A DNA stretch of 64,000 nucleotides from Shewanella sp. (GCF_013214165.1 NZ_JABSSM010000023.1:3609-67608); one strand, 5' to 3'. Shown: positions 1 through 11,091, counted from the first letter of the stretch. The notes: generated by a model from the letters alone, not told the origin. Numbers and translations are program-made.

Positions 1-155
1 AAACCGTCTTGATTTAACTTACGTTGTAGCGCATGCATTGCCCCTAACCAAGCCGTCATTGCAGGGAAGCCTATGGTAAAAGGGCTAGATAATGCATTGG
101 CATTATGCACTTTAATATGTGGCAATATTAATAGGGTTTTGATTTCACCGCTCAT
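1..155 (-). CDS. csy2: Type I-F Csy2 (Cas5f), 5' part only; runs off the window
   Basis: Manual translation from ATG at 155-153 (ATGA overlap with csy1 stop, AAGGAGG RBS): MSGEIKTLLILPHIKVHNANALSSPFTIGFPAMTAWLGAMHALQRKL, the typical Csy2 N-terminus. Confidence 0.92.
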   Translation of the reverse strand, partial: MSGEIKTLLILPHIKVHNANALSSPFTIGFPAMTAWLGAMHALQRKLNQDG

Positions 156-1411
156 CGTAGCGCCTCCTTATGCTGAGTGATCATTCTCAAAAAATGTAAC
201 CGTTCTTCCTCACCTAGCATCACTGCCTGCTTACCCATAACCGTTTTATACGTGCTTGCAAACCAACTGGATATCTCATTGACCAAAGTATCTAGCCATT
301 CATCCGTGTTTTCACGTTCTTCGATAAACTCATGGTGTAACCATATTTTTTGCACGCGAGTCAGTTGTGATATCTCGCTGTTATATTGCAACTCAGAAAT
401 ACTGCGAATTGCCCACATTTTGGCAATGATTTTGTCCATCACTTCGTGAATACGCGCATCGCGACTATTACGTAATTTTTTATTGTTTTTATAATCAATT
501 TTAAAGATGCGGTGCAGCGCTTGAAACACATCCTTATATTCATAAGGTCGAAACGATTCGCTAAAAAAATTACTACGTGGAAAATGAATGGTGCGTTTTT
601 CTATTTGTGGTGGTAGTGATGACAACAGATGTGCTTTACCCCCATTTTGATTATTCAGCACGCTGATATTTTGTGGTTTAGTGCCGCCATAACCAATCGT
701 GGTTAAACCATATATTTCTGCAAAACCCTGCTCACTAAATTCATTCTTTTTCCTTAATTCTCTTAGTACTTTAACCTCGTCATTAAAACGTAAATTATCG
801 ATACGCTTTCGCAGCTGATATAACATGCCCGAATTGGTTAATAGGGAAAGCTGGTGATAGTCCTCTGCAACAGGAAAATACACTTGTTTTATTTTAGAGC
901 TGGTAACATTTTCACTGCCACTTTCCGCCATCGCGACAAAACCTGCTTTTAACTCCGTATAAGAGACTTCTTTTAGCGTCAATAACTGCGCGGCCAGTTG
1001 TGAATCATTTTGAATATGTGTGAGCAGTTGCTGGCCATCGGTCATTTCTAAGGTTAAAAATTTATACACATCCAGTGCCGCAGCGTTACCCAATGCATCG
1101 GTATCAACAACCACATTACCGCTGCGTAAAAAACCATCTATCGCACTGTCTGCGTTGGCGATAACCGAACTAACGTAGCCATTTTTATTTTTTCGAGCAC
1201 TCGGATGACTAAACGTACAGGGGTGCGTCGCCATTGAGATCTGACCCGCTCTTTTCGCCGCGTTGGGCAGCCAAGTTGATAACGAGAATACCGCTTCACA
1301 TTGTTGTTGTGTTTCTCGAATTTGAGCTTCATCCATCGAAGCCTTTAGATTTTTCTTTAACCACGCTTCTTTTCGTTCTTCAAAGAAACGGGTGATAGCA
1401 GGATCTAACAT
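152..1411 (-). CDS. csy1: Type I-F Csy1 (Cas8f)
   Basis: 419 aa; motifs ATHPCTFSHP, DALGNAAALDVYKFL, SSKIKQVYFPV, GGTKPQNIS; sits between cas2-3 and csy2. Confidence 0.95.
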   Translation of the reverse strand: MLDPAITRFFEERKEAWLKKNLKASMDEAQIRETQQQCEAVFSLSTWLPNAAKRAGQISMATHPCTFSHPSARKNKNGYVSSVIANADSAIDGFLRSGNVVVDTDALGNAAALDVYKFLTLEMTDGQQLLTHIQNDSQLAAQLLTLKEVSYTELKAGFVAMAESGSENVTSSKIKQVYFPVAEDYHQLSLLTNSGMLYQLRKRIDNLRFNDEVKVLRELRKKNEFSEQGFAEIYGLTTIGYGGTKPQNISVLNNQNGGKAHLLSSLPPQIEKRTIHFPRSNFFSESFRPYEYKDVFQALHRIFKIDYKNNKKLRNSRDARIHEVMDKIIAKMWAIRSISELQYNSEISQLTRVQKIWLHHEFIEERENTDEWLDTLVNEISSWFASTYKTVMGKQAVMLGEEERLHFLRMITQHKEALR

Positions 1412-4400
1412 TGCTCTCTCCCTATTTTCACTAATCCAAATTGATCACTGTACTCGTACTTCTCACCGTCTCTGACAACAAAACTTAATTCGCCATAACG
1501 CAGTGATACTTGCCGTCTTGTTGGTAGTACGTCTGCGTCAATGTGTGCATCTAATACATCAAGGTAATCGCGTACTAGCCATAAATTATTTCGTTCACTT
1601 GTCGATAAACTCACCGGCGTTATTTGCCATATGTTGTCGACATTGATTAAATTACCCGCGATATCTGTTATACGTAAACCTTGCTCGTCTTTCTCGGTAA
1701 AATAACAATCTTCATCATTGCTATTTGCCACTAAAAATATTTTACTACTGGGCTCACTTTGCCTAAACGAATGCAGCAGTTGTGGCATTGCCGTTAAAAA
1801 CCACGTTGAATCAAGGTAGCCTTGCAGTGCTTGTGGGCCGAGCTGGGTATATTGAGTCAGTAATGCACCTATAGCGCGATGTTCAATACCCGCTAAATGC
1901 TGGCCTTGTGATTGATCTAATTGAGTAATGCGAGGAATCGCATTGATGCCGTTTTCAAGCGCTGCCAGGTTGACAATTTTACTCAGATCATGGGTTGGCA
2001 TTGGCTTAGTTTCATAGCCTGGTCGGGTAAAATAAACACCGCCTTGTTTGTCGCCTGCTATATATGCTTGGTAGTTATATTGCATTAAGCCAATATTAGC
2101 TTGAGTCACTTCGCCTTCGCGATGACGACGAACCCGCCCTGCTAATTGCACAATAGAGCGATAAGACGACGGTTCAACTACTGCCCAGTCAAAGTCATGA
2201 TCTCGCCCAACTTCCTCTACTGGGGTGGCAACCAGAATAAAAATAATCTGCTTGGCGTTACTGTTATCAAGGTGACCACGAATAATGGCATTGCTGAACG
2301 CCTTTGGCGCTTCGCCGGCCTTTTCTTTGCGCTTTAACACTTGGTCAAGGTGCTGTTCTTGTTCATGACGCAGTAACAAAACCTGCTGGCTATGATATGC
2401 CATGACCTTGACTTCGGTATCCGCTGGAAATTCAGCACTCAACAAGTAGCGAGTTAACTCAACACAAGGAGAAATATTGGCAACCCGGACAACACCAAAT
2501 GACACCTGTTTATTTGTCAGTTCGTCAACGGTATGGTGGTGTTGATGTTTCACTAACACCGCGTCTTTAATATGCTGAAAATAAGTCTCTTGCTTGCTTA
2601 TTCCATCTGTCGATTTAGTGTTAACCCTGTTGACTTCGCACGCCACAATATGGCCTTTACGTTTCGCGGTTTGATTGGTTAGCAACTTGATACGTTTATC
2701 AATAAAGGCATCGTGGAACGATTTATATTGCGCTATGGCGGGTTCACTATCACTAGATTTGACAGTTTCAACCTGAGTATACGACTCGTCAATCCAAGCA
2801 CAGCCTATAATGGCCTGTGACTCGGTACGTGATAGGCAATATAACTGCCAGCCTTTTTTGTAGGCATTAAAATAGCCTTCAGCCAAGCTTGGGGGAATGG
2901 TGGCAGAAGATATCATCACCTTACGCCCCAGCATGCCAGCAAGGTGAATAAGTCGCCCGATGGCAATTAAATCTGAACCGGTAAAATCATCAATTTCATC
3001 AATCACCAGATCAGACGACATCAAGCGTAATGACGGTAAAATATAACGACCACCGCGTTTGGTTTCTGTTGCCGCCATGATGTGATCAATCGTGCAAGCT
3101 AAAACGGGGGCATAAAGAAACTGCTTATCTTTATTTTTAGTCAGCACTGTCGTTAGGCCACTTTCAGGAATATCACAGTCATAATCAATAAACTCATCCA
3201 GTAACGACTCTGCCGATTCAGAACCCACGGCTTCCGCTGTCAATTCTTCCTCTGCTGCTACACGCTTATTATGTAAATCAGCCACCGCTTTAGACCCAAT
3301 TAACACGGCCAGTTGGCTTTTATCCAATCCGATACGTTGTCGATATTCATCGCCAGTCTGCAAGGTCAATGTGCGTAACCCAAGCGCTAAAATATAGCGC
3401 AAACTTTGCTGATCTACCGATAATGCTCGCATCACTTTGGCGTTAGCGAAGGTTTTACCACAGCCCGTACTCGCCATATTGACCGCAAAAAAACCAAACG
3501 CTTGCTTGGACTGCTGTTGGCGCCACTCCGTTATACTTTCTACCGCTTTATCTTGCCAACGAAATGCTTTAGGACTTGGCTTTCTTAACGCTTGAATATC
3601 TTGGGCTAACGGTGGTTCAGACTCAAAGGCAGGTAATAGATGCGCGGTATCCAGTGCCACTTTAGCGACGCCCACCAAGTGCTCATCTAATTTCTGCTTT
3701 AACTGATTAGTGTCTCGGTCGGTATTAGCAAATAAACCTGTGGTATCTTGCCAACCTTTGGCAGCATCTTGAGATGAATAGTTATGATCACCTAACATCA
3801 AACACAAACGCGCATGATGTAATACTAAACGATAGCTGCCGTCGGCGATCGCCTCTTTAATTAGTGGTAATTGATGTTGTAATTGGGTCGCCCTGCGTTT
3901 AACTAACTTATTCCATTGTGGAGACTGGGTTAATAAACCTTTGGGGAATTCAAAGCATTGTTTAACCCGGGCTTGATATTCAACTTCATCTTGGCGATTT
4001 TCATAGCCCCATTCTTGACTAATCTCACCCAGCAAATCGTCTATTCGCGGAAAGTCTTCTCCGAGATATTTGTTTCTTACTGCTTTTTTATCCCAAGAAT
4101 ACAAGGGTAATCTATGGTGCGAGACGAGCAACCAAGCGATGAGTTTGGCAGCATCTGGCAGTCCTTGCAGTGGTTTGCTGATGTTTTCACTCGAGACGGC
4201 TTTAATTCGCTGTTCGTCCAACTCGCCCATAATAAGCACTTTGAGCCAGTCTTCATCGCCAGCATCACTCGAACGAACCAGTGCATTAAGCAATAAACAA
4301 GATATCCATTCGTGTCGGATCGGATCACCTTTACATTTACTTTTACTGTCTGGGTTGAGCTTATTTTGAAACAGTCGCGATGCCTTGCCCCAATCATGTA

Positions 4401-4764
4401 ACAGCGCGGCAAGTCCGGTGAGCGATTTTATTAATGGCAGATACTTCCAATCATTTTCTATTTCCATGTTTAACAAGTTTCGCTTGGTAGTATTCACTGG
4501 CACCACTCCTTCACCATTAAACTTACTCTTATTGCCCACCACCCATATAAACTGACTGCGAGCGCGTGAGCGGATCCAATGGCAGCTCACCGCGGTACTT
4601 TTACTGGCAGTTTGTCGCAGCATCTTTTTTACCGCCTGCAAGCCGTCTTCAGTGATAATGGTTTGCCAGGTATTGTCACCGATGCGATTGGCAAAGGCGT
4701 CTAACACCCGCCGGGTTTTCTTTAAGGCGTTTTTCTCGCACATTGACACGAATGTAACCATCAT
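1405..4764 (-). CDS. cas3: Type I-F Cas2-3 fusion (Cas2 domain + HD nuclease + SF2 helicase)
   Basis: N-terminal Cas2-like MVTFVSMCEKNALKKTRRVLD; HD motif LLHDWGK; Walker A ASTGCGKT; DEID box; ATPVEEVGRDHDFD. Confidence 0.97.
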   Translation of the reverse strand: MMVTFVSMCEKNALKKTRRVLDAFANRIGDNTWQTIITEDGLQAVKKMLRQTASKSTAVSCHWIRSRARSQFIWVVGNKSKFNGEGVVPVNTTKRNLLNMEIENDWKYLPLIKSLTGLAALLHDWGKASRLFQNKLNPDSKSKCKGDPIRHEWISCLLLNALVRSSDAGDEDWLKVLIMGELDEQRIKAVSSENISKPLQGLPDAAKLIAWLLVSHHRLPLYSWDKKAVRNKYLGEDFPRIDDLLGEISQEWGYENRQDEVEYQARVKQCFEFPKGLLTQSPQWNKLVKRRATQLQHQLPLIKEAIADGSYRLVLHHARLCLMLGDHNYSSQDAAKGWQDTTGLFANTDRDTNQLKQKLDEHLVGVAKVALDTAHLLPAFESEPPLAQDIQALRKPSPKAFRWQDKAVESITEWRQQQSKQAFGFFAVNMASTGCGKTFANAKVMRALSVDQQSLRYILALGLRTLTLQTGDEYRQRIGLDKSQLAVLIGSKAVADLHNKRVAAEEELTAEAVGSESAESLLDEFIDYDCDIPESGLTTVLTKNKDKQFLYAPVLACTIDHIMAATETKRGGRYILPSLRLMSSDLVIDEIDDFTGSDLIAIGRLIHLAGMLGRKVMISSATIPPSLAEGYFNAYKKGWQLYCLSRTESQAIIGCAWIDESYTQVETVKSSDSEPAIAQYKSFHDAFIDKRIKLLTNQTAKRKGHIVACEVNRVNTKSTDGISKQETYFQHIKDAVLVKHQHHHTVDELTNKQVSFGVVRVANISPCVELTRYLLSAEFPADTEVKVMAYHSQQVLLLRHEQEQHLDQVLKRKEKAGEAPKAFSNAIIRGHLDNSNAKQIIFILVATPVEEVGRDHDFDWAVVEPSSYRSIVQLAGRVRRHREGEVTQANIGLMQYNYQAYIAGDKQGGVYFTRPGYETKPMPTHDLSKIVNLAALENGINAIPRITQLDQSQGQHLAGIEHRAIGALLTQYTQLGPQALQGYLDSTWFLTAMPQLLHSFRQSEPSSKIFLVANSNDEDCYFTEKDEQGLRITDIAGNLINVDNIWQITPVSLSTSERNNLWLVRDYLDVLDAHIDADVLPTRRQVSLRYGELSFVVRDGEKYEYSDQFGLVKIGREQC

Positions 4765-4780
4765 CAGATTTAACCTACCT

Positions 4781-4948
4781 TCATTCGTTATCCAAAAAGT
4801 TTTTTATCGCTATGCTTAACTTAACCATGAATATTAGTAATTCCCCACTCCTATGCCAAGACATACGGCACCGACACTTATCAATACATCTTCTTATTTT
4901 TATTATTAAATTAAGCATCACCCTGTACACAGCACATACTATTTTCAT
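4781..4948 (-). CDS. Putative 55-aa small ORF upstream of cas2-3 (candidate toxin or leader ORF)
   Basis: GAGAGG (4963-4958) 9 nt before ATG at 4948; MKIVCAVYRVMLNLIIKIRRCIDKCRCRMSWHRSGELLIFMVKLSIAIKNFLDNE; its TGA abuts the cas2-3 RBS; no recognised family. Confidence 0.4.
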   Translation of the reverse strand: MKIVCAVYRVMLNLIIKIRRCIDKCRCRMSWHRSGELLIFMVKLSIAIKNFLDNE

Positions 4949-4995
4949 TATAAGAAGCCTCTCATCCATTAAAGAGAGCACAGCTTACCCTACCC

Positions 4996-5024
4996 GATCT
5001 AACCGATCAACCTATGTATGTCAA
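4996..5024 (-). promoter_or_regulatory. Candidate sigma70 promoter for small ORF + cas2-3/csy operon
   Basis: Perfect TTGACA at 5024-5019; imperfect -10 at 17-nt (TAGATC) or 16-nt (TTAGAT) spacing. Confidence 0.55.
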
Positions 5025-5033
5025 AAATAAAAC
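5011..5033 (+). promoter_or_regulatory. PAM + protospacer matched by the mini-array spacer
   Basis: CC (5011-5012) then TATGTATGTCAAAAATAAAAC versus spacer TATGTATGTCAAAAATATAAA; first 17 nt identical, 19/21 overall. Confidence 0.9.
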
Positions 5034-5051
5034 TGTGACTTATGAAAGATA

Positions 5052-5080
5052 GTGACGCTAACCTATCAATCCAATATAAT
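5052..5080 (+). promoter_or_regulatory. sigma70 promoter of the mini-array
   Basis: GTGACG (5052-5057), N17, perfect TATAAT (5075-5080); predicted TSS about 5085-5087. Confidence 0.75.
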
Positions 5081-5081
5081 G

Positions 5082-5158
5082 ACCAGCTGCCGCACAGGCA
5101 GCTTAGAAATATGTATGTCAAAAATATAAAGTACACTGCCGAGCAGGCAGCCTAACAG
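5082..5158 (+). CRISPR. Mini-array (pseudo-repeat / 21-nt spacer / pseudo-repeat), antisense to cas genes; CreA/CreR-like regulatory crRNA
   Basis: R1 accagCTGCCGCACAGGCAGCTTAGAAA (last 23 nt identical to array repeat); spacer 5110-5130; R2 GTACACTGCCGAGCAGGCAGcctaacag (5-bp stem intact), overlapping the cas1 stop. Confidence 0.9.
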
Positions 5159-6168
5159 CCAGCAACATTATTGCTGGCTGTTTTTTCATTAAGGGCAATG
5201 TTTTTTACCGTCTCAAACATAAAATCGAGCGCTTTATGATCGGTAAATGCTTGCAGTACTTGCTGCCTAAACTCTTGTTCGGTGAGCTTTTCTTTAGCGC
5301 AAATAAAAGCCCAAGGTAAGACGATGGCATCTTTAATCAAATCGGCAATATCAAACACCAAGGCTCCCCTTCTGGTCTTGCCGTGCATCACGGCAAAACC
5401 GTGGGGTATGCCTAATACCCATAGGGTGGTTGCCGCTAACCCATAAGCGAGATAATTACCATGATTGAGAAAGTCGTTGGCCTTGTCGGTAGACTGATGC
5501 TGACGGGTAAAGTCTGACGTGTTAGTCACATTGGCGGCAAATTTGTAGAGCTGCTTGGTGAGCTGCGCTTCGGTTAACAAGAGATCTGACGGCTTAGCGG
5601 CGGTGATCATGCGTTGATCAAAACGCTGTAATGCAGCTTCAATATTGCTATCGCTAGTCGTAAAACCTGCTAATTTAAGATCCCTGTCTTTACCCCAAAC
5701 ATGATGTAAAAATTCAATCCGTGCTTGTTGAAATTGTTTGGCGGCATCGAGTCGTTTATTGTCATCAAACCAAAAACCCATCCAACCTTGTAAGTATTCC
5801 GTAGGGCGATATTCACTTTGTGGGGTAAACCATTCAATGGCATTGCCCATGTATAACGGTGTGCCTCCGCCACCAGAAAAACCAATCAATACGCCGGCTT
5901 GTGCCAACATTCTTACCGCAGCTTGGGTGATCGACGTACCATTGCCCAGTAACAGAACCGTGGTATTGGCAATGGGAATATTGAAGTATTGGTTTTCTTT
6001 CTTTGCCTCTGTCAGATACAACACCCGACCGTCTTTTTGCATCACTCGGCAATATTCGAGGTAATAGATGTTGGCACGCTTAGAGTGCAGTATCGCTTTG
6101 AGATCTGATGATGAAAAGTTATCCAATTTATCGGCCCGTATTATATTGTTGGGTGAGTAAGGTGCCAC
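5152..6168 (-). CDS. cas1: Type I-F Cas1
   Basis: DLKAILHSKRANIYYLEYCRV, NIPIANTT, HGKTRRGALVFDIADLIKD motifs; true start probably TTG at 6126 (MDNFSSSDLK) by analogy with I-F Cas1 N-termini. Confidence 0.97.
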   Translation of the reverse strand: MAPYSPNNIIRADKLDNFSSSDLKAILHSKRANIYYLEYCRVMQKDGRVLYLTEAKKENQYFNIPIANTTVLLLGNGTSITQAAVRMLAQAGVLIGFSGGGGTPLYMGNAIEWFTPQSEYRPTEYLQGWMGFWFDDNKRLDAAKQFQQARIEFLHHVWGKDRDLKLAGFTTSDSNIEAALQRFDQRMITAAKPSDLLLTEAQLTKQLYKFAANVTNTSDFTRQHQSTDKANDFLNHGNYLAYGLAATTLWVLGIPHGFAVMHGKTRRGALVFDIADLIKDAIVLPWAFICAKEKLTEQEFRQQVLQAFTDHKALDFMFETVKNIALNEKTASNNVAGC

Positions 6169-6210
6169 TTTACTGGGTTCCTAAGCCTTAACAATACTGT
6201 GTAAAATCTC

Positions 6211-6229
6211 AGGTAAAGTGACTTTACCT
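6211..6229. promoter_or_regulatory. Perfect 8-bp inverted repeat between WYL gene and cas1 (candidate operator)
   Basis: AGGTAAAG-TGA-CTTTACCT; about 45 bp upstream of a candidate cas1 promoter GTGGCA-N17-TATAAT (6168-6140, minus). Confidence 0.45.
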
Positions 6230-6258
6230 CGATGGTATGATTGATGATAAAAACGAGG

Positions 6259-7086
6259 TTAATGGTTTAAAAGCCACTTTTTGATGTCATCTTGGTTGAC
6301 TAGAATTAATTGTTGGGCCTCTGGCGTGCCGTCTAACATTTTGGTATTGACCTGCAACTCCCGCAGCAAATAACTGGCCAGTGCGGCGCGGGTGTTAATA
6401 ATGAGTTGGCCGCCTTCCATTTGATAGTCATGGGCTAGTACTGCTTTTTTTGCAGGGGATAAGCGTGGATCTGGCTGTAAAATAAGTGGGATGTAGGTTT
6501 GCCAGTCACGATCTAAGCTGGCGTCTTGGTAAGGCCCATCTACAATGTCTGCCACGCCTCTGAAGCGGCTTAATACTAGGTCACGGTATTGTTGTGATTT
6601 TTCGCAATAACCTCTTACATGCCAACGTAATCCTGTATTGACGAATGTATGAGGATGAAAAATACGCCCATCACTCTCTGGATTAGACAGGGAAATATAA
6701 TTAGTTTCCATTCGTTTACGTTGCCGAATCGCTTTTACCAGTACCCTGATAACGTCGACTGAGACTCTGCGGGTGGGCAGGGCAAGATGGCTGACGTTAG
6801 CGGTAATGGGAGAGTGTTCATGAATTTGCTTTGTGTCAAACCACTGAAGATATTGATTAATGTCTGATGACATATAGTGTGCGATAAATGTTTTACTGGG
6901 CTTAAAACCATGGCTGGTTTGAATTAAGTTATCAGGAAACTGTTCATTGTAACGTTTAAAGTCTTGATAAGCCTGTTGGCGACTGATAGCAAATTGTTCA
7001 GTGAGTTGTTTATTCGTTACAGTGCCTTCCCACCATGCGACTAGTTCAATGAACAGTTTCCTCTGTTGTAAATTATTTGTAGCCAT
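6259..7086 (-). CDS. wHTH-WYL transcriptional regulator, CapW-like
   Basis: N-terminal IELVAWWEG...FAISRQQAYQDF (wHTH); WYL core FHPHTFVNTGLRWHVRGYCEKSQQYRDLVLSRF; C-terminal PDPRLS...DYQM...TRAAL dimerisation-type segment. Confidence 0.85.
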   Translation of the reverse strand: MATNNLQQRKLFIELVAWWEGTVTNKQLTEQFAISRQQAYQDFKRYNEQFPDNLIQTSHGFKPSKTFIAHYMSSDINQYLQWFDTKQIHEHSPITANVSHLALPTRRVSVDVIRVLVKAIRQRKRMETNYISLSNPESDGRIFHPHTFVNTGLRWHVRGYCEKSQQYRDLVLSRFRGVADIVDGPYQDASLDRDWQTYIPLILQPDPRLSPAKKAVLAHDYQMEGGQLIINTRAALASYLLRELQVNTKMLDGTPEAQQLILVNQDDIKKWLLNH

Positions 7087-7297
7087 ACCCTTCCTTAGGT
7101 TGTGTACACCAGAGTCAAATATCCGGACATATGATAAGCCTATGCTTTTATTAACAACTTAACGTTTAACAATATCACATTACAGGATATTTATGGCGAA
7201 CACTAGACGGTTGTTTTTTGTTGCAGTGATAGAGCAATTAGCTGAACGTAAAAGTGAGTTGATTTAAAGAGTTGGTAAGATTAGTCACAGTTGAGGA

Positions 7298-8646
7298 TTT
7301 CTAAGCTAGCTGCGCAGCAGTGAACCGGCCGGTGCTGTTATCTAATCCTCATGTGATTTTCTAAGCTGCCTGTGCGGCAGTGAACGTATAACGTTATCGG
7401 GTCCAGGTTCCTCGAGTTTTCTAATCTGCCTGTGCGGCAGTGAACCGTAGGAGGGGCTTCAGCCCCGATGCATATAGATTTCTAAGCTGCCTGTGCGGCA
7501 GTGAACGTACCAAACAAATTTACGCTAGTCGCTAGGCTTTTCTAAGCTGCCTGTGCGGCAGTGAACACCAAACTAAACCTACAACGGCCCAGCTCGCATT
7601 TCTAAGCTGCCTGTGCGGCAGTGAACTGCTTCGCGACGCGCTGTTATGAACACCGCCGTTTCTAAGCTGCCTGTGCGGCAGTGAACCGGGTAACACTAGA
7701 AACTTTAGACTCGGTGATTTTCTAAGCTGCCTGTGCGGCAGTGAACTGAATATCGATACTCAGGCCATATTTTTGGATTTTCTAAGCTGCCTGTGCGGCA
7801 GTGAACATTATTAACGTTAAGCTCTAGGTTTTCGACTCTTTCTAAGCTGCCTGTGCGGCAGTGAACGCGGACGCTTTGCAGTGCGCATATACGCTGGATT
7901 TCTAAGCTGCCTGTGCGGCAGTGAACCGGATACTGTTCTCGAGTATTACAAAATCGACTTTCTAAGCTGCCTGTGCGGCAGTGAACCCCAGAGTCGGTGA
8001 AAGCAAAATTTTCTGGATTTTCTAAGCTGCCTGTGCGGCAGTGAACCAAGGCGGCGCACTGGTTGTTGTTGTTCGGGTTTTCTAAGCTGCCTGTGCGGCA
8101 GTGAACTGCTAGCAATTCGGCGGCGCTGTTGTCTTCTGTTTCTAAGCTGCCTGTGCGGCAGTGAATGCAGAGGCTAGACGCATAGAAGACGCTCGACTTT
8201 TCTAAGCTGCCTGTGCGGCAGTGAACCCTACAGAGTTTCTAATAGAGTCGATGCGTGATTTCTAAGCTGCCTGTGCGGCAGTGAACTAATCAGCTAACGA
8301 TAACCTCACAAGTTGAAATTTCTAAGCTGCCTGTGCGGCAGTGAACGAGATCAAAGAGTTCAATATGTTTGTCGGCACTTTCTAAGCTGCCTGTGCGGCA
8401 GTGAACGCCTATCCTCAACACTCACCCACTCGCTTTGTTTTCTAAGCTGCCTGTGCGGCAGTGAACAGGGGCGGCAGGGGCGCACGATGATGTGTACATT
8501 TCTAAGCTGCCTGTGCGGCAGTGAACAGTGTGAAGAAAAATACTTAACTTATGCTGCTTTTCTAAGCTGCCTGTGCGGCAGTGAACTAGGTGTGACATCG
8601 GTTAAATCTGCTGTGAGCTTTCTAAGCTGCCTGTGCGGCAGTGAAC
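7298..8646 (-). CRISPR. Type I-F CRISPR array, 23 repeats / 22 spacers
   Basis: 28-nt repeat GTTCACTGCCGCACAGGCAGCTTAGAAA (minus); 32-nt spacers (one of 33); degenerate terminal repeat at 7298-7325 (4 mismatches) and single-base variants at 7418 and 8139; leader on the right. Confidence 0.99.
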
Positions 8647-8790
8647 ACTAGCATAGCAGCACAAAAATAAGTTACAACAAGTCTTTAGGTAAAAAATACC
8701 TATTTAACCTTCTAAAATATGACTTGTTGTAACTGATTGTTTTTCTTGTTGATTTTTAAATAGCGAAAAATAAGGGTTAAAACCAGTGTT
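8647..8790 (-). promoter_or_regulatory. CRISPR leader with IHF-like sites and inverted repeats
   Basis: AT-rich; perfect 14-bp IR AGTTACAACAAGTC (8670-8683) / GACTTGTTGTAACT (8721-8734); AAACAATCAGTTA (minus, 8742-8730) fits IHF consensus WATCAANNNNTTR at all but one position. Confidence 0.8.
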
Positions 8791-9559: not shown

Positions 9560-9587
9560 ATTCTAAGCTGCCTGCGCGGCGGTGAAC
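9560..9587 (-). CRISPR. Orphan type I-F repeat
   Basis: GTTCACCGCCGCGCAGGCAGCTTAGAAT, 25/28 identical to array repeat, 914 bp from the array; no second repeat at +/-60 bp. Confidence 0.85.
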
Positions 9588-10159: not shown

Positions 10160-11091
10160 GACTCATCTCCATACTCGTTGGTCAGCACTAAGGCAAGCAG
10201 CGCTTGGCGGGCATATACGCCATTTTCAGCCTGCTGAAAGTAATAAGCATAAGGGGTGTGATCTACATCTGTGGTGATCTCATCGACTCTGGGCAATGGG
10301 TGTAATACCTTAAGATTATCTTTCACTCCCTGCAGCATGTTAGCGCTCAAGATAAAACTGGATTTCAAATGCTGATATTCAGTTTCATCGAAGCGTTCCT
10401 TCTGCACCCGAGTCATATATAAGATATCTAAGTTATCGACTACGCCATCTAAGGTGTCATGCAGGGTGAACTTACAGCCTTGGGCTTTGAGATCGTCGAT
10501 AATGTAATCGGGCATAGACAGTGCTGGGGGGGCAATAAAGTGGAACTCACAATCAAACAGAGACAATGCCTGGGTCAGAGAATGCACTGTACGACCATAT
10601 TTAAGATCACCCACGAAGGCCACCTGCAGCTTATCTAAGGTGCCTTGGGTCTCATAGATGCTGAACAGGTCGAGTAAGGTTTGCGTCGGATGCTGATTCG
10701 AGCCATCGCCGCCATTGATCACCGGCACCGAAGAGAACTCACTGGCAAGACGGGCCGCGCCCTCTTGATTGTGACGCATGAAGAAAGCGTCGCAATAGGA
10801 GGAGATCACCTTTACCGAATCGGCCAAGGTTTCACCTTTCTTGCCCAAAGACGTGTTACCACTATCGGGGAAACCAATAATACTTCCCCCTAGCCTATGT
10901 ACCGCGGTCTCGAAGGACAGGCGAGTTCGCGTCGAGGCTTCGAAGAAACAGCTGGCGATGACACAGTTTTTCAACAGTTCTGGATTAGGAGTTTGCTTCA
11001 GTGTATTGGCGGTAGAGACAATAAGTTCTAGTTCTGAACGTGAGAGGTCGGAGATAGAGATTATATGTTTATGATATAAGGGGTTACTCAT
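10156..11091 (-). CDS. pyrB: Aspartate carbamoyltransferase catalytic chain
   Basis: [25 protein letters not shown] motifs. Confidence 0.98.

Follow-up and report, generated by a model that had tools for sequence, protein, structure and literature searches.

A degenerate type I-F mini-CRISPR between cas1 and cas2/3 of a Shewanella sp. is probably a crRNA-like regulator of the resident cas genes

We analysed a stretch of 64,000 nt from Shewanella sp. (GCF_013214165.1 NZ_JABSSM010000023.1:3609-67608), referred to as the window, and identified a degenerate mini-CRISPR in the gap between cas1 and cas2/3. It is probably a crRNA-like regulatory RNA gene of the CreR/CreA kind ('crlRNA'), through which the resident type I-F1 system would throttle its own cas genes. 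This reading is carried by what was observed at the locus and in its relatives, namely the sequence anatomy of the element, a self-target with its PAM, the surrounding cas genes, an architecture that recurs class-wide and an indel polymorphism. The class has already been described for I-F1 systems; what is unusual here is the position between cas1 and cas2/3 (1 of the 44 placeable relatives and 0 of 80 Cas1-related loci), together with a regulated unit that presumably takes in cas2/3 and a presence/absence polymorphism among natural populations in sediment.

The locus is laid out as follows.
152-1411, minus strand: csy1, overlapped by cas2/3
1405-4764, minus strand: cas2/3 fusion, first gene of the cas2/3-csy1-csy2-csy3-csy4 operon, overlapping csy1
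387 nt between cas2/3 and cas1: gap with the mini-array inside it, on the plus strand
4741-5212: presence/absence module of 472 nt, with 78 other letters in its place in near-identical strains
5152-6168, minus strand: cas1 (type I-F Cas1f, 338 aa; TIGR03637, 477 bits)
6259-7086, minus strand: WYL/BrxR-like gene (275 aa), between the CRISPR array and cas1
7298-8647, minus strand: cognate type I-F CRISPR array with 23 repeats of GTTCACTGCCGCACAGGCAGCTTAGAAA, to which both pseudo-repeats are compared

The context of the mini-array is chromosomal, with cas1 and cas2/3 at its flanks and pyrBI nearby. An ENA scaffold (L205) with the exact module carries csy1, csy2, csy3 (TIGR02566) and csy4/cas6f (TIGR02563, 160 bits); on this scaffold the ORFs of cas2/3, csy1 and csy2 overlap while csy3 and csy4 follow within 16 nt, so that cas2/3-csy1-4 reads as a single operon.

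The WYL protein encoded at 6259-7086 (minus strand), for which precomputed Pfam annotation gives BrxR winged-helix, WYL and BrxR C-terminal domains, is likely a transcription regulator of the locus, and homologues of its gene occupy the equivalent position in two other loci (L131 and L160). Within the array, one repeat period of 61 nt (33-nt spacer) lies in 7407-7478, the repeat at 7418-7445 has a G to T change in the 5′ handle region and the terminal repeat (7298-7325) is strongly degenerate; a leader at the 8647 end is consistent with the 61-nt period, the variant repeat and the degenerate terminal repeat. About 0.9 kb past the array leader and next to pyrI, a solitary degenerate repeat with one stem mismatch (GTTCACCGCCGCGCAGGCAGCTTAGAAT, 9560-9587, minus strand) was detected, possibly left over from an old array end or arisen by duplication. 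It is followed by 11 nt (ACTATGTGCAT) similar to those with which the array spacer starts at 7468-7478 (TCTATATGCAT).

The mini-array consists of the following parts.
5052-5080, plus strand: predicted sigma-70 promoter (-35 GTGACG 5052-5057, 17-nt spacer, -10 TATAAT 5075-5080; predicted +1 at 5085-5087)
5087-5109, plus strand: psiR1, CTGCCGCACAGGCAGCTTAGAAA, with hairpin CTGCC-GCACA-GGCAG (5087-5101) and the 8-nt 5′ handle CTTAGAAA (5102-5109)
5110-5130, plus strand: psiS, spacer-like guide of 21 nt, TATGTATGTCAAAAATATAAA (the array spacers have 32 nt)
5131-5158, plus strand: psiR2, GTACACTGCCGAGCAGGCAG then CCTAACAG; positions 1-20 (5131-5150) form the 3′ handle and the last 8 nt (5151-5158) are degenerate
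5154-5188, plus strand: intrinsic terminator predicted for the mini-array transcript by terminator scan and fold (12-bp stem, 5-nt loop, T-run)

A preliminary description of this DNA had proposed the promoter GTGACG-N17-TATAAT and, from its position, a start at about 5085-5087. The promoter is present where it was placed; with 10/12 consensus positions it is the best sigma-70-like site in 4600-5400 by promoter scan, and its TATAAT ends 6 nt before the psiR1 hairpin. The repeat identities given there were also reproduced. From 5087 onward psiR1 is identical to the array repeat at 23/23 positions (repeat positions 6-28), whereas the five bases preceding it, ACCAG against GTTCA of the repeat, match at 0/5 (Fisher test, p=1e-5); these five bases look replaced by promoter sequence rather than decayed. 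The first 20 nt of psiR2 match the repeat at 17/20, the changes being at position 3 and, in the loop, at positions 12 and 13; its stem CTGCC/GGCAG (5136-5140/5146-5150) is intact. The last 8 nt of psiR2, which match at 4/8, take in the stop codon of cas1 (TAG, minus strand, 5152-5154), the overlap that had been described; taken alone, the contrast of 17/20 versus 4/8 is not significant (p=0.077). Cas6f cuts are predicted after 5101 in psiR1 and after 5150 in psiR2. That psiR1 keeps the 5′ handle and psiR2 does not, with the palindrome in both, has already been published for this class (bioRxiv 10.64898/2026.06.02.729485).

Rfam CRISPR-DR4 matches both units on the plus strand, psiR1 with 32.4 bits (model positions 6-28) and psiR2 with 20.8 bits. 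The predicted fold of the RNA from 5085 to 5192 has exactly three hairpins, those of psiR1, psiR2 and the terminator (z=-5.1), and the psiR1 hairpin is present in both the MFE and the centroid structures. The mini-array is 2.1 kb from the main array and on the opposite strand, with cas1 and the WYL gene in between. An ordinary array or a decayed array end was rejected on these grounds: the spacer has 21 nt, psiR1 is without positions 1-5, the strand is opposite and the element is detached from the array.

Read on the minus strand, the psiR2 hairpin (5135-5151) followed by a T-rich tract to about 5120, GTACTTTATATTTTT, gives a terminator-like score just past the cas1 stop. The cassette might thus, in addition, terminate transcripts of cas1 and shield cas2/3-csy from the promoter of cas1. 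Three metatranscriptomes of the same samples gave contigs on cas1, on 7037-7230 and on pyrB, and none over 4765-5200. In the small metatranscriptome of the sample with the highest DNA depth, the contigs lie at 5804-6009 (cas1), 7037-7230 and 10210-10676 (pyrB), the second of which covers the 5′ end of the WYL gene and its upstream sequence, before the last repeat of the array. These contigs are hints of in situ expression of the locus, DNA carry-over being possible.

Upstream of the mini-array, toward cas2/3, we detected the following features.
5011-5032, plus strand: self-target, with CC PAM (5011-5012) and protospacer TATGTATGTCAAAAATAAAA (5013-5032)
4982-5010, minus strand: predicted divergent promoter toward cas2/3 (-35 TTGATC 5010-5005, 17-nt spacer, -10 TAAGCT 4987-4982; TSS at about 4975)
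4765-4981, minus strand: leader from the predicted divergent promoter to the cas2/3 ATG, with an orphan 66-aa ORF and extra promoter-like sites

The guide psiS pairs with the protospacer at 19/20 positions, the single mismatch being at position 18. In type I-F systems, each sixth guide position is unpaired with the target. Only two matches to psiS occur in the 64-kb window, 5013-5032 being the sole other copy (0.01 expected by chance). The self-target lies 97 nt upstream of the spacer, has 20 seed-contiguous positions and stands at an offset of -69 from psiR1, inside the range of the class described below. The element shows, of the features that define crlRNAs, two repeat-like units with one spacer, a 5′ handle, both hairpins, partial complementarity beside a CC PAM, and cognate csy1-3 and cas6f. 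As for a target next to a promoter, TTGATC begins directly after the PAM complement GG and TAAGCT follows 17 nt on, a promoter that is weak by consensus (4/6 and 3/6, 7/12 in total) and uncalled by a generic promoter scan. The terminator scan called no minus-strand terminator between this predicted promoter and cas2/3. Two further promoter-like sites lie on the minus strand of the leader, TATAAT at 4952-4947 and TTGGCA-17-TAATAT at 4859-4831, and they could express cas2/3 beyond the control of the mini-array. The hexamer TTGACA within the protospacer (5024-5019, minus strand) was considered as the regulated -35 as well; it is a perfect hexamer, but the sequences 16-18 nt on (TTAGAT, TAGATC, AGATCG) are unacceptable as a -10, and it was rejected because of this and because the class pattern favours the PAM-adjacent hexamer.

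Transcription, processing, binding and repression by the mini-array RNA are what we infer from this arrangement. Its own promoter (5052-5080) would drive transcription from the base of the psiR1 hairpin, at about 5085-5087, and the transcript would end at the terminator (5154-5188). Cas6f (Csy4) would cut after 5101 and 5150 and release an RNA of 49 nt, composed of the 8-nt handle CUUAGAAA, the 21-nt guide and the 20-nt hairpin handle. A Csy complex loaded with this RNA would bind the CC-flanked sequence at 5013-5032; as the guide would be too short for a full R-loop, Cas2/3 would not be licensed to cut and the complex would act as a repressor. Bound just upstream of the -35, it would occlude the divergent promoter (5010-4982) reading into cas2/3-csy1-4, the transcript of which would start at about 4975 and, with no terminator called before 4764, enter cas2/3-csy1-4. 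The effector level would in this way feed back negatively on its own synthesis, with relief when crRNAs or anti-CRISPRs deplete the free Csy complex. Elements of such a circuit have been reported elsewhere. In the absence of Cas3, a reporter is repressed by Cascade and the RNA of an I-F1 mini-array (validated with P. aeruginosa YL84; Shmakov et al. 2023, PMC10120712). The mature I-F CreA measured in Acinetobacter consists of 8 + 20 + 20 nt (PMC10097628), which the predicted 8 + 21 + 20 nt match, and CreR targets adjoin cas promoters, where CreR is proposed to act in autorepression in response to crRNA load and anti-CRISPRs, as shown in other subtypes (Liu et al. 2023, bioRxiv 10.1101/2023.03.10.532045).

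A pattern scan for short-spaced I-F repeat pairs recovered more than 119 loci, including about 70 isolated two-repeat mini-arrays from many genera. Because a locus had to contain the psiR2 stem and the 3′ portion of psiR1 to be matched by the scan, decayed copies are under-sampled and only the unconstrained positions are informative; at these positions, identity to the I-F consensus was computed for 60 non-redundant mini-arrays. Positions 1-5 of psiR1 are random-like (identity 0.33) and the 5′ stem half that follows (positions 6-10) reaches 0.87. For psiR2, identity is 0.63 at positions 1-5; past the cut, position 21 reaches 0.82, with about 0.5 for positions 22-24 and about 0.3 for 25-28. In 38 of the 60, the psiR1 stem is preceded by a TANNNT hexamer whose end lies 5-8 nt away (background 2.1 per offset, window 6 nt). 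Spacers have 13-28 nt, commonly 19-20, and most members have a CC-flanked, seed-contiguous target on the same strand, 36-102 nt upstream of psiR1. On the opposite strand, TTG occurs 1-4 nt after the PAM complement GG in 16 of 25 members (control mean 1.9), and the full -35/-10 arrangement next to the PAM in 15 of 25 (control 0.6). It is this layout, common to 60 independent I-F mini-arrays, that probably places the Shewanella element in the CreR/CreA class of crRNA-like regulatory RNAs.

The position of the Shewanella element is rare within the class. When 44 mini-arrays could be placed, 41 were in the cas2/3-csy1 gap opposite to the cas strand, 2 were there on the same strand, and one (L108) was in the cas1-cas2/3 gap. 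In L108 a tool-called promoter, TTGAAA-17-TAATAT, lies 2 nt from the PAM and points toward cas2/3. The L108 leader (6186-6260) holds a second copy of the cas2/3 start (ATGATGGTT...), which opens an upstream ORF of 24 codons across an 8-bp GC hairpin, and the stop of this ORF overlaps the true cas2/3 ATG. The duplicated start is possibly the footprint of a cassette insertion. Homologues of cas1, cas2/3 and csy1 are lacking from the 8-kb loci of eleven isolated I-F-type mini-arrays (L081, L090, L105, L107, L115, L124, L132, L146, L169, L172 and L177), which are candidates for orphan or mobile-element-borne crRNA mimics.

In public sediment metagenomes, runs X1-X4 carry the element unchanged, and in runs X5-X8 flanks with 0-3 differences skip 4741-5212 and have the 78 letters instead; X5 has a low-depth contig with the module in addition. 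With these two forms in near-identical strains, the element is a compact polymorphic cassette. The module is young, a recent indel, and since it is an indel among near-identical strains, the pattern of its repeats reflects the construction of a cassette and not decay in place. All recoverable copies of the module, from the public runs and the scaffold, are 100% identical, which leaves no variation at the locus with which selection could be tested. The preliminary description had taken the limits of repeat conservation, exactly at the predicted TSS and Cas6f cut sites, as a signature of selection on the mature guide. The boundary pattern recurs in the 60 mini-arrays (0.33 against 0.87 at the psiR1 border, and the -10 in 38/60), and this part of the claim holds at the level of the class; at the locus itself selection is not shown, with identical copies of an indel module, and class-wide the identity of psiR2 fades gradually past the cut rather than ending at it.

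The module was also searched for in more distant relatives. No repeat-like sequence was found in the cas1-cas2/3 gap of 80 species-representative loci (Cas1 75-95% identical), most of which have cas1 and cas2/3 overlapping or at most 60 nt apart. The closest of the 80 is that of Shewanella benthica KT99, where an ATGA combines the start codon of cas2/3 with the overlapping stop of cas1, the ancestral cas1/cas2-3 junction. A relaxed search for hairpin and handle in 15 long cas1-cas2/3 gaps gave nothing, an exact search with the psiR1 end and the guide seed gave no match in genome contigs, and in metagenome contigs the same search matched nothing but an unrelated sequence, in two copies, and one ordinary array. 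That array, on an unrelated metagenome contig (L202, about 3515-3553), is of type I-F and has a 32-nt spacer starting with TATGTATGATCAAAAA, like the guide TATGTATGTCAAAAA except for one indel; its first 8 nt were imposed by the search, so that the likeness in the remainder is probably due to chance. Across these exact searches of genome and metagenome contigs and the 80 related loci, no diverged orthologue of the module was found. The module supplies a new SD for cas2/3 and has rewritten the last approximately 12 codons of cas1, so that the terminator hairpin encodes the new Cas1 tail (...KTASNNVAGC and the stop). No phage, plasmid or acr-like gene is recognisable in its 472 nt, and its sizeable ORFs have no Pfam match or homologue.

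Two long overlapping antisense ORFs lie in the AT-rich leader, one of 66 aa (4781-4981, minus strand) and one of 72 aa (4812-5030, plus strand). The former raises the question of a toxin. In an addiction module of the CreTA/CrePA type, the guide RNA would be an antitoxin (CreA) that silences a toxin in the 4765-5012 leader, whether the 66-aa ORF or a small RNA containing a mini-ORF. Loss or inhibition of Csy would then arrest the cell, and cas2/3 would be repressed either incidentally or as an additional function. We regard this as unlikely. The known I-F mini-arrays of Acinetobacter and P. aeruginosa are indeed CreTA/CrePA, in which a toxin is encoded downstream of the target site (PMC10097628; bioRxiv 10.64898/2026.06.02.729485; bioRxiv 10.1101/2024.01.05.574328), and here 248 nt between the target and cas2/3 hold the ORF 4981-4781, with an SD-like AGGG 6 nt ahead of its GTG, a run of ATA ATA AAA ATA AGA AGA and a stop 17 nt short of the cas2/3 ATG. 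However, this ORF has no homologue but itself among 5.8 billion proteins and no Pfam match, and its GTG falls inside the predicted -10 of the divergent promoter. A unit like the published CreT, with SD, mini-ORF and GC hairpin, was not found in the 4765-5012 leader, and no minus-strand terminator defines a separate small RNA. The idea of a rare-codon toxin is weakened by local codon usage, as AGA and ATA, at 7.6 and 16 per 1000 codons in the window, are not especially rare.

It is very improbable that the element is a non-functional remnant, that is, an array fragment (partial repeat, truncated spacer and repeat) moved into the cas1-cas2/3 junction by a recombination accident. Such an origin would agree with the recent date of the indel, which most related strains and species lack, with the missing variation that could demonstrate constraint and with the insignificant psiR2 contrast, but it leaves unexplained a 19/20 self-match behind a correct PAM within 100 nt, a 10/12 promoter positioned for transcription from the hairpin base onward, a terminator of 12 bp immediately behind psiR2, and an architecture that matches about 60 independent mini-arrays point by point. 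The preliminary description had likewise preferred function over a decayed array remnant, and this is well supported, mainly by evidence that it did not cite, namely the PAM-flanked self-target, the divergent promoter, the terminator and the cognate csy1-csy4. Hardly probable at all is a counter-defence cassette of a mobile element (Cracr/Racr-like), with a crRNA mimic that would shut down cas2/3-csy or titrate Cas6f/Csy for an invader. The 21-nt psiS is within the 17-21 nt of viral I-F Cracr RNAs, most bacterial ones having 23-27 nt (bioRxiv 10.1101/2024.10.29.618823), the module behaves as a mobile indel, and the 11 similar mini-arrays without a cas gene within 8 kb fit the same idea. On the other hand, a psiS of 20 nt is likewise present in chromosomal CreA of Acinetobacter and in CreA1 of P. 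aeruginosa (PMC10097628; bioRxiv 10.64898/2026.06.02.729485), the 472-nt module has no recognisable phage or plasmid gene, and the cassette brings its own target and adjacent promoter and is therefore self-contained, without hijacking a pre-existing host promoter. A homing guide of a CRISPR-associated transposon was rejected, as cas1 and cas2/3 are present in a standard I-F1 operon layout (judged at the cas locus).

Returning to the crRNA-like self-regulator, perhaps the cassette does more than repress. We put forward tentatively, as a rather doubtful extension, that it is a portable 'operon splitter' at the translationally coupled cas1/cas2-3 junction, which would end cas1 transcripts at the minus-strand psiR2 hairpin and T-rich tract, provide a new promoter and SD for cas2/3-csy1-4 and impose Csy-guided feedback on this promoter. 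If true, adaptation would be uncoupled from interference and the Cas2/3 nuclease would come under crRNA-load sensing. In the same tentative spirit, the 211-nt leader might also hide a toxin of a new kind, repressed by CRISPR. More generally, the locus would be a natural example of CRISPR-derived regulatory guides as modular cassettes that land at different cas-operon junctions and come and go between wild strains that are nearly identical, and its position upstream of cas2/3 suggests that the nuclease-helicase, beyond the surveillance complex, can fall under self-guided feedback. The class-wide layout also gives a sequence rule for finding such regulators: a -10 box from which transcription would start at the first hairpin, replacement of repeat bases 1-5, a second-repeat tail free to vary, and a PAM that abuts the -35 of the regulated promoter.

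Compared with known systems, the element resembles viral Racr/Cracr RNAs (PMC10651486; bioRxiv 10.1101/2024.10.29.618823), small RNAs that derive from repeats, have a short spacer or none and engage Cas6f and Csy, but those are on phages or plasmids, often by acr genes, whereas here the context is a chromosomal cas operon and the target is the element's own. With I-F CreTA/CrePA (Acinetobacter WCHA45, PMC10097628; A. baylyi ADP1, bioRxiv 10.1101/2024.01.05.574328; P. aeruginosa CreTA1/2, bioRxiv 10.64898/2026.06.02.729485) it has in common the order psiR1-psiS-psiR2 with a psiS of 20-26 nt, a mature RNA (predicted here) of 8-nt 5′ handle, psiS and 20-nt 3′ handle, the retained psiR1 handle CTNAGAAA, the palindrome in both pseudo-repeats, the CC PAM and the divergent orientation to the regulated promoter (likewise predicted here). 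Those systems differ in lying in the cas2-3/csy1 gap and in having a recognisable toxin downstream of the target (SD, mini-ORF and hairpin, or a KilAC protein), while none is recognisable here. The element resembles CreR (bioRxiv 10.1101/2023.03.10.532045) as a stand-alone degenerate mini-CRISPR with no identified toxin and a target by a predicted effector cas promoter; CreR has been shown experimentally for I-B, I-E and V-A and is only predicted for I-F. The I-F1 regulatory mini-arrays (PMC10120712) also have two repeat-like units around a short spacer, antisense to the cas genes, tolerate a mismatch at each sixth position and are patchy among closely related loci. They are, however, typically in the cas3-cas8f (csy1) gap, with other sites 'sporadic', and here the mini-array is in the cas1-cas2/3 gap, so that the regulated unit would include the Cas2/3 nuclease-helicase in addition to csy1-4.
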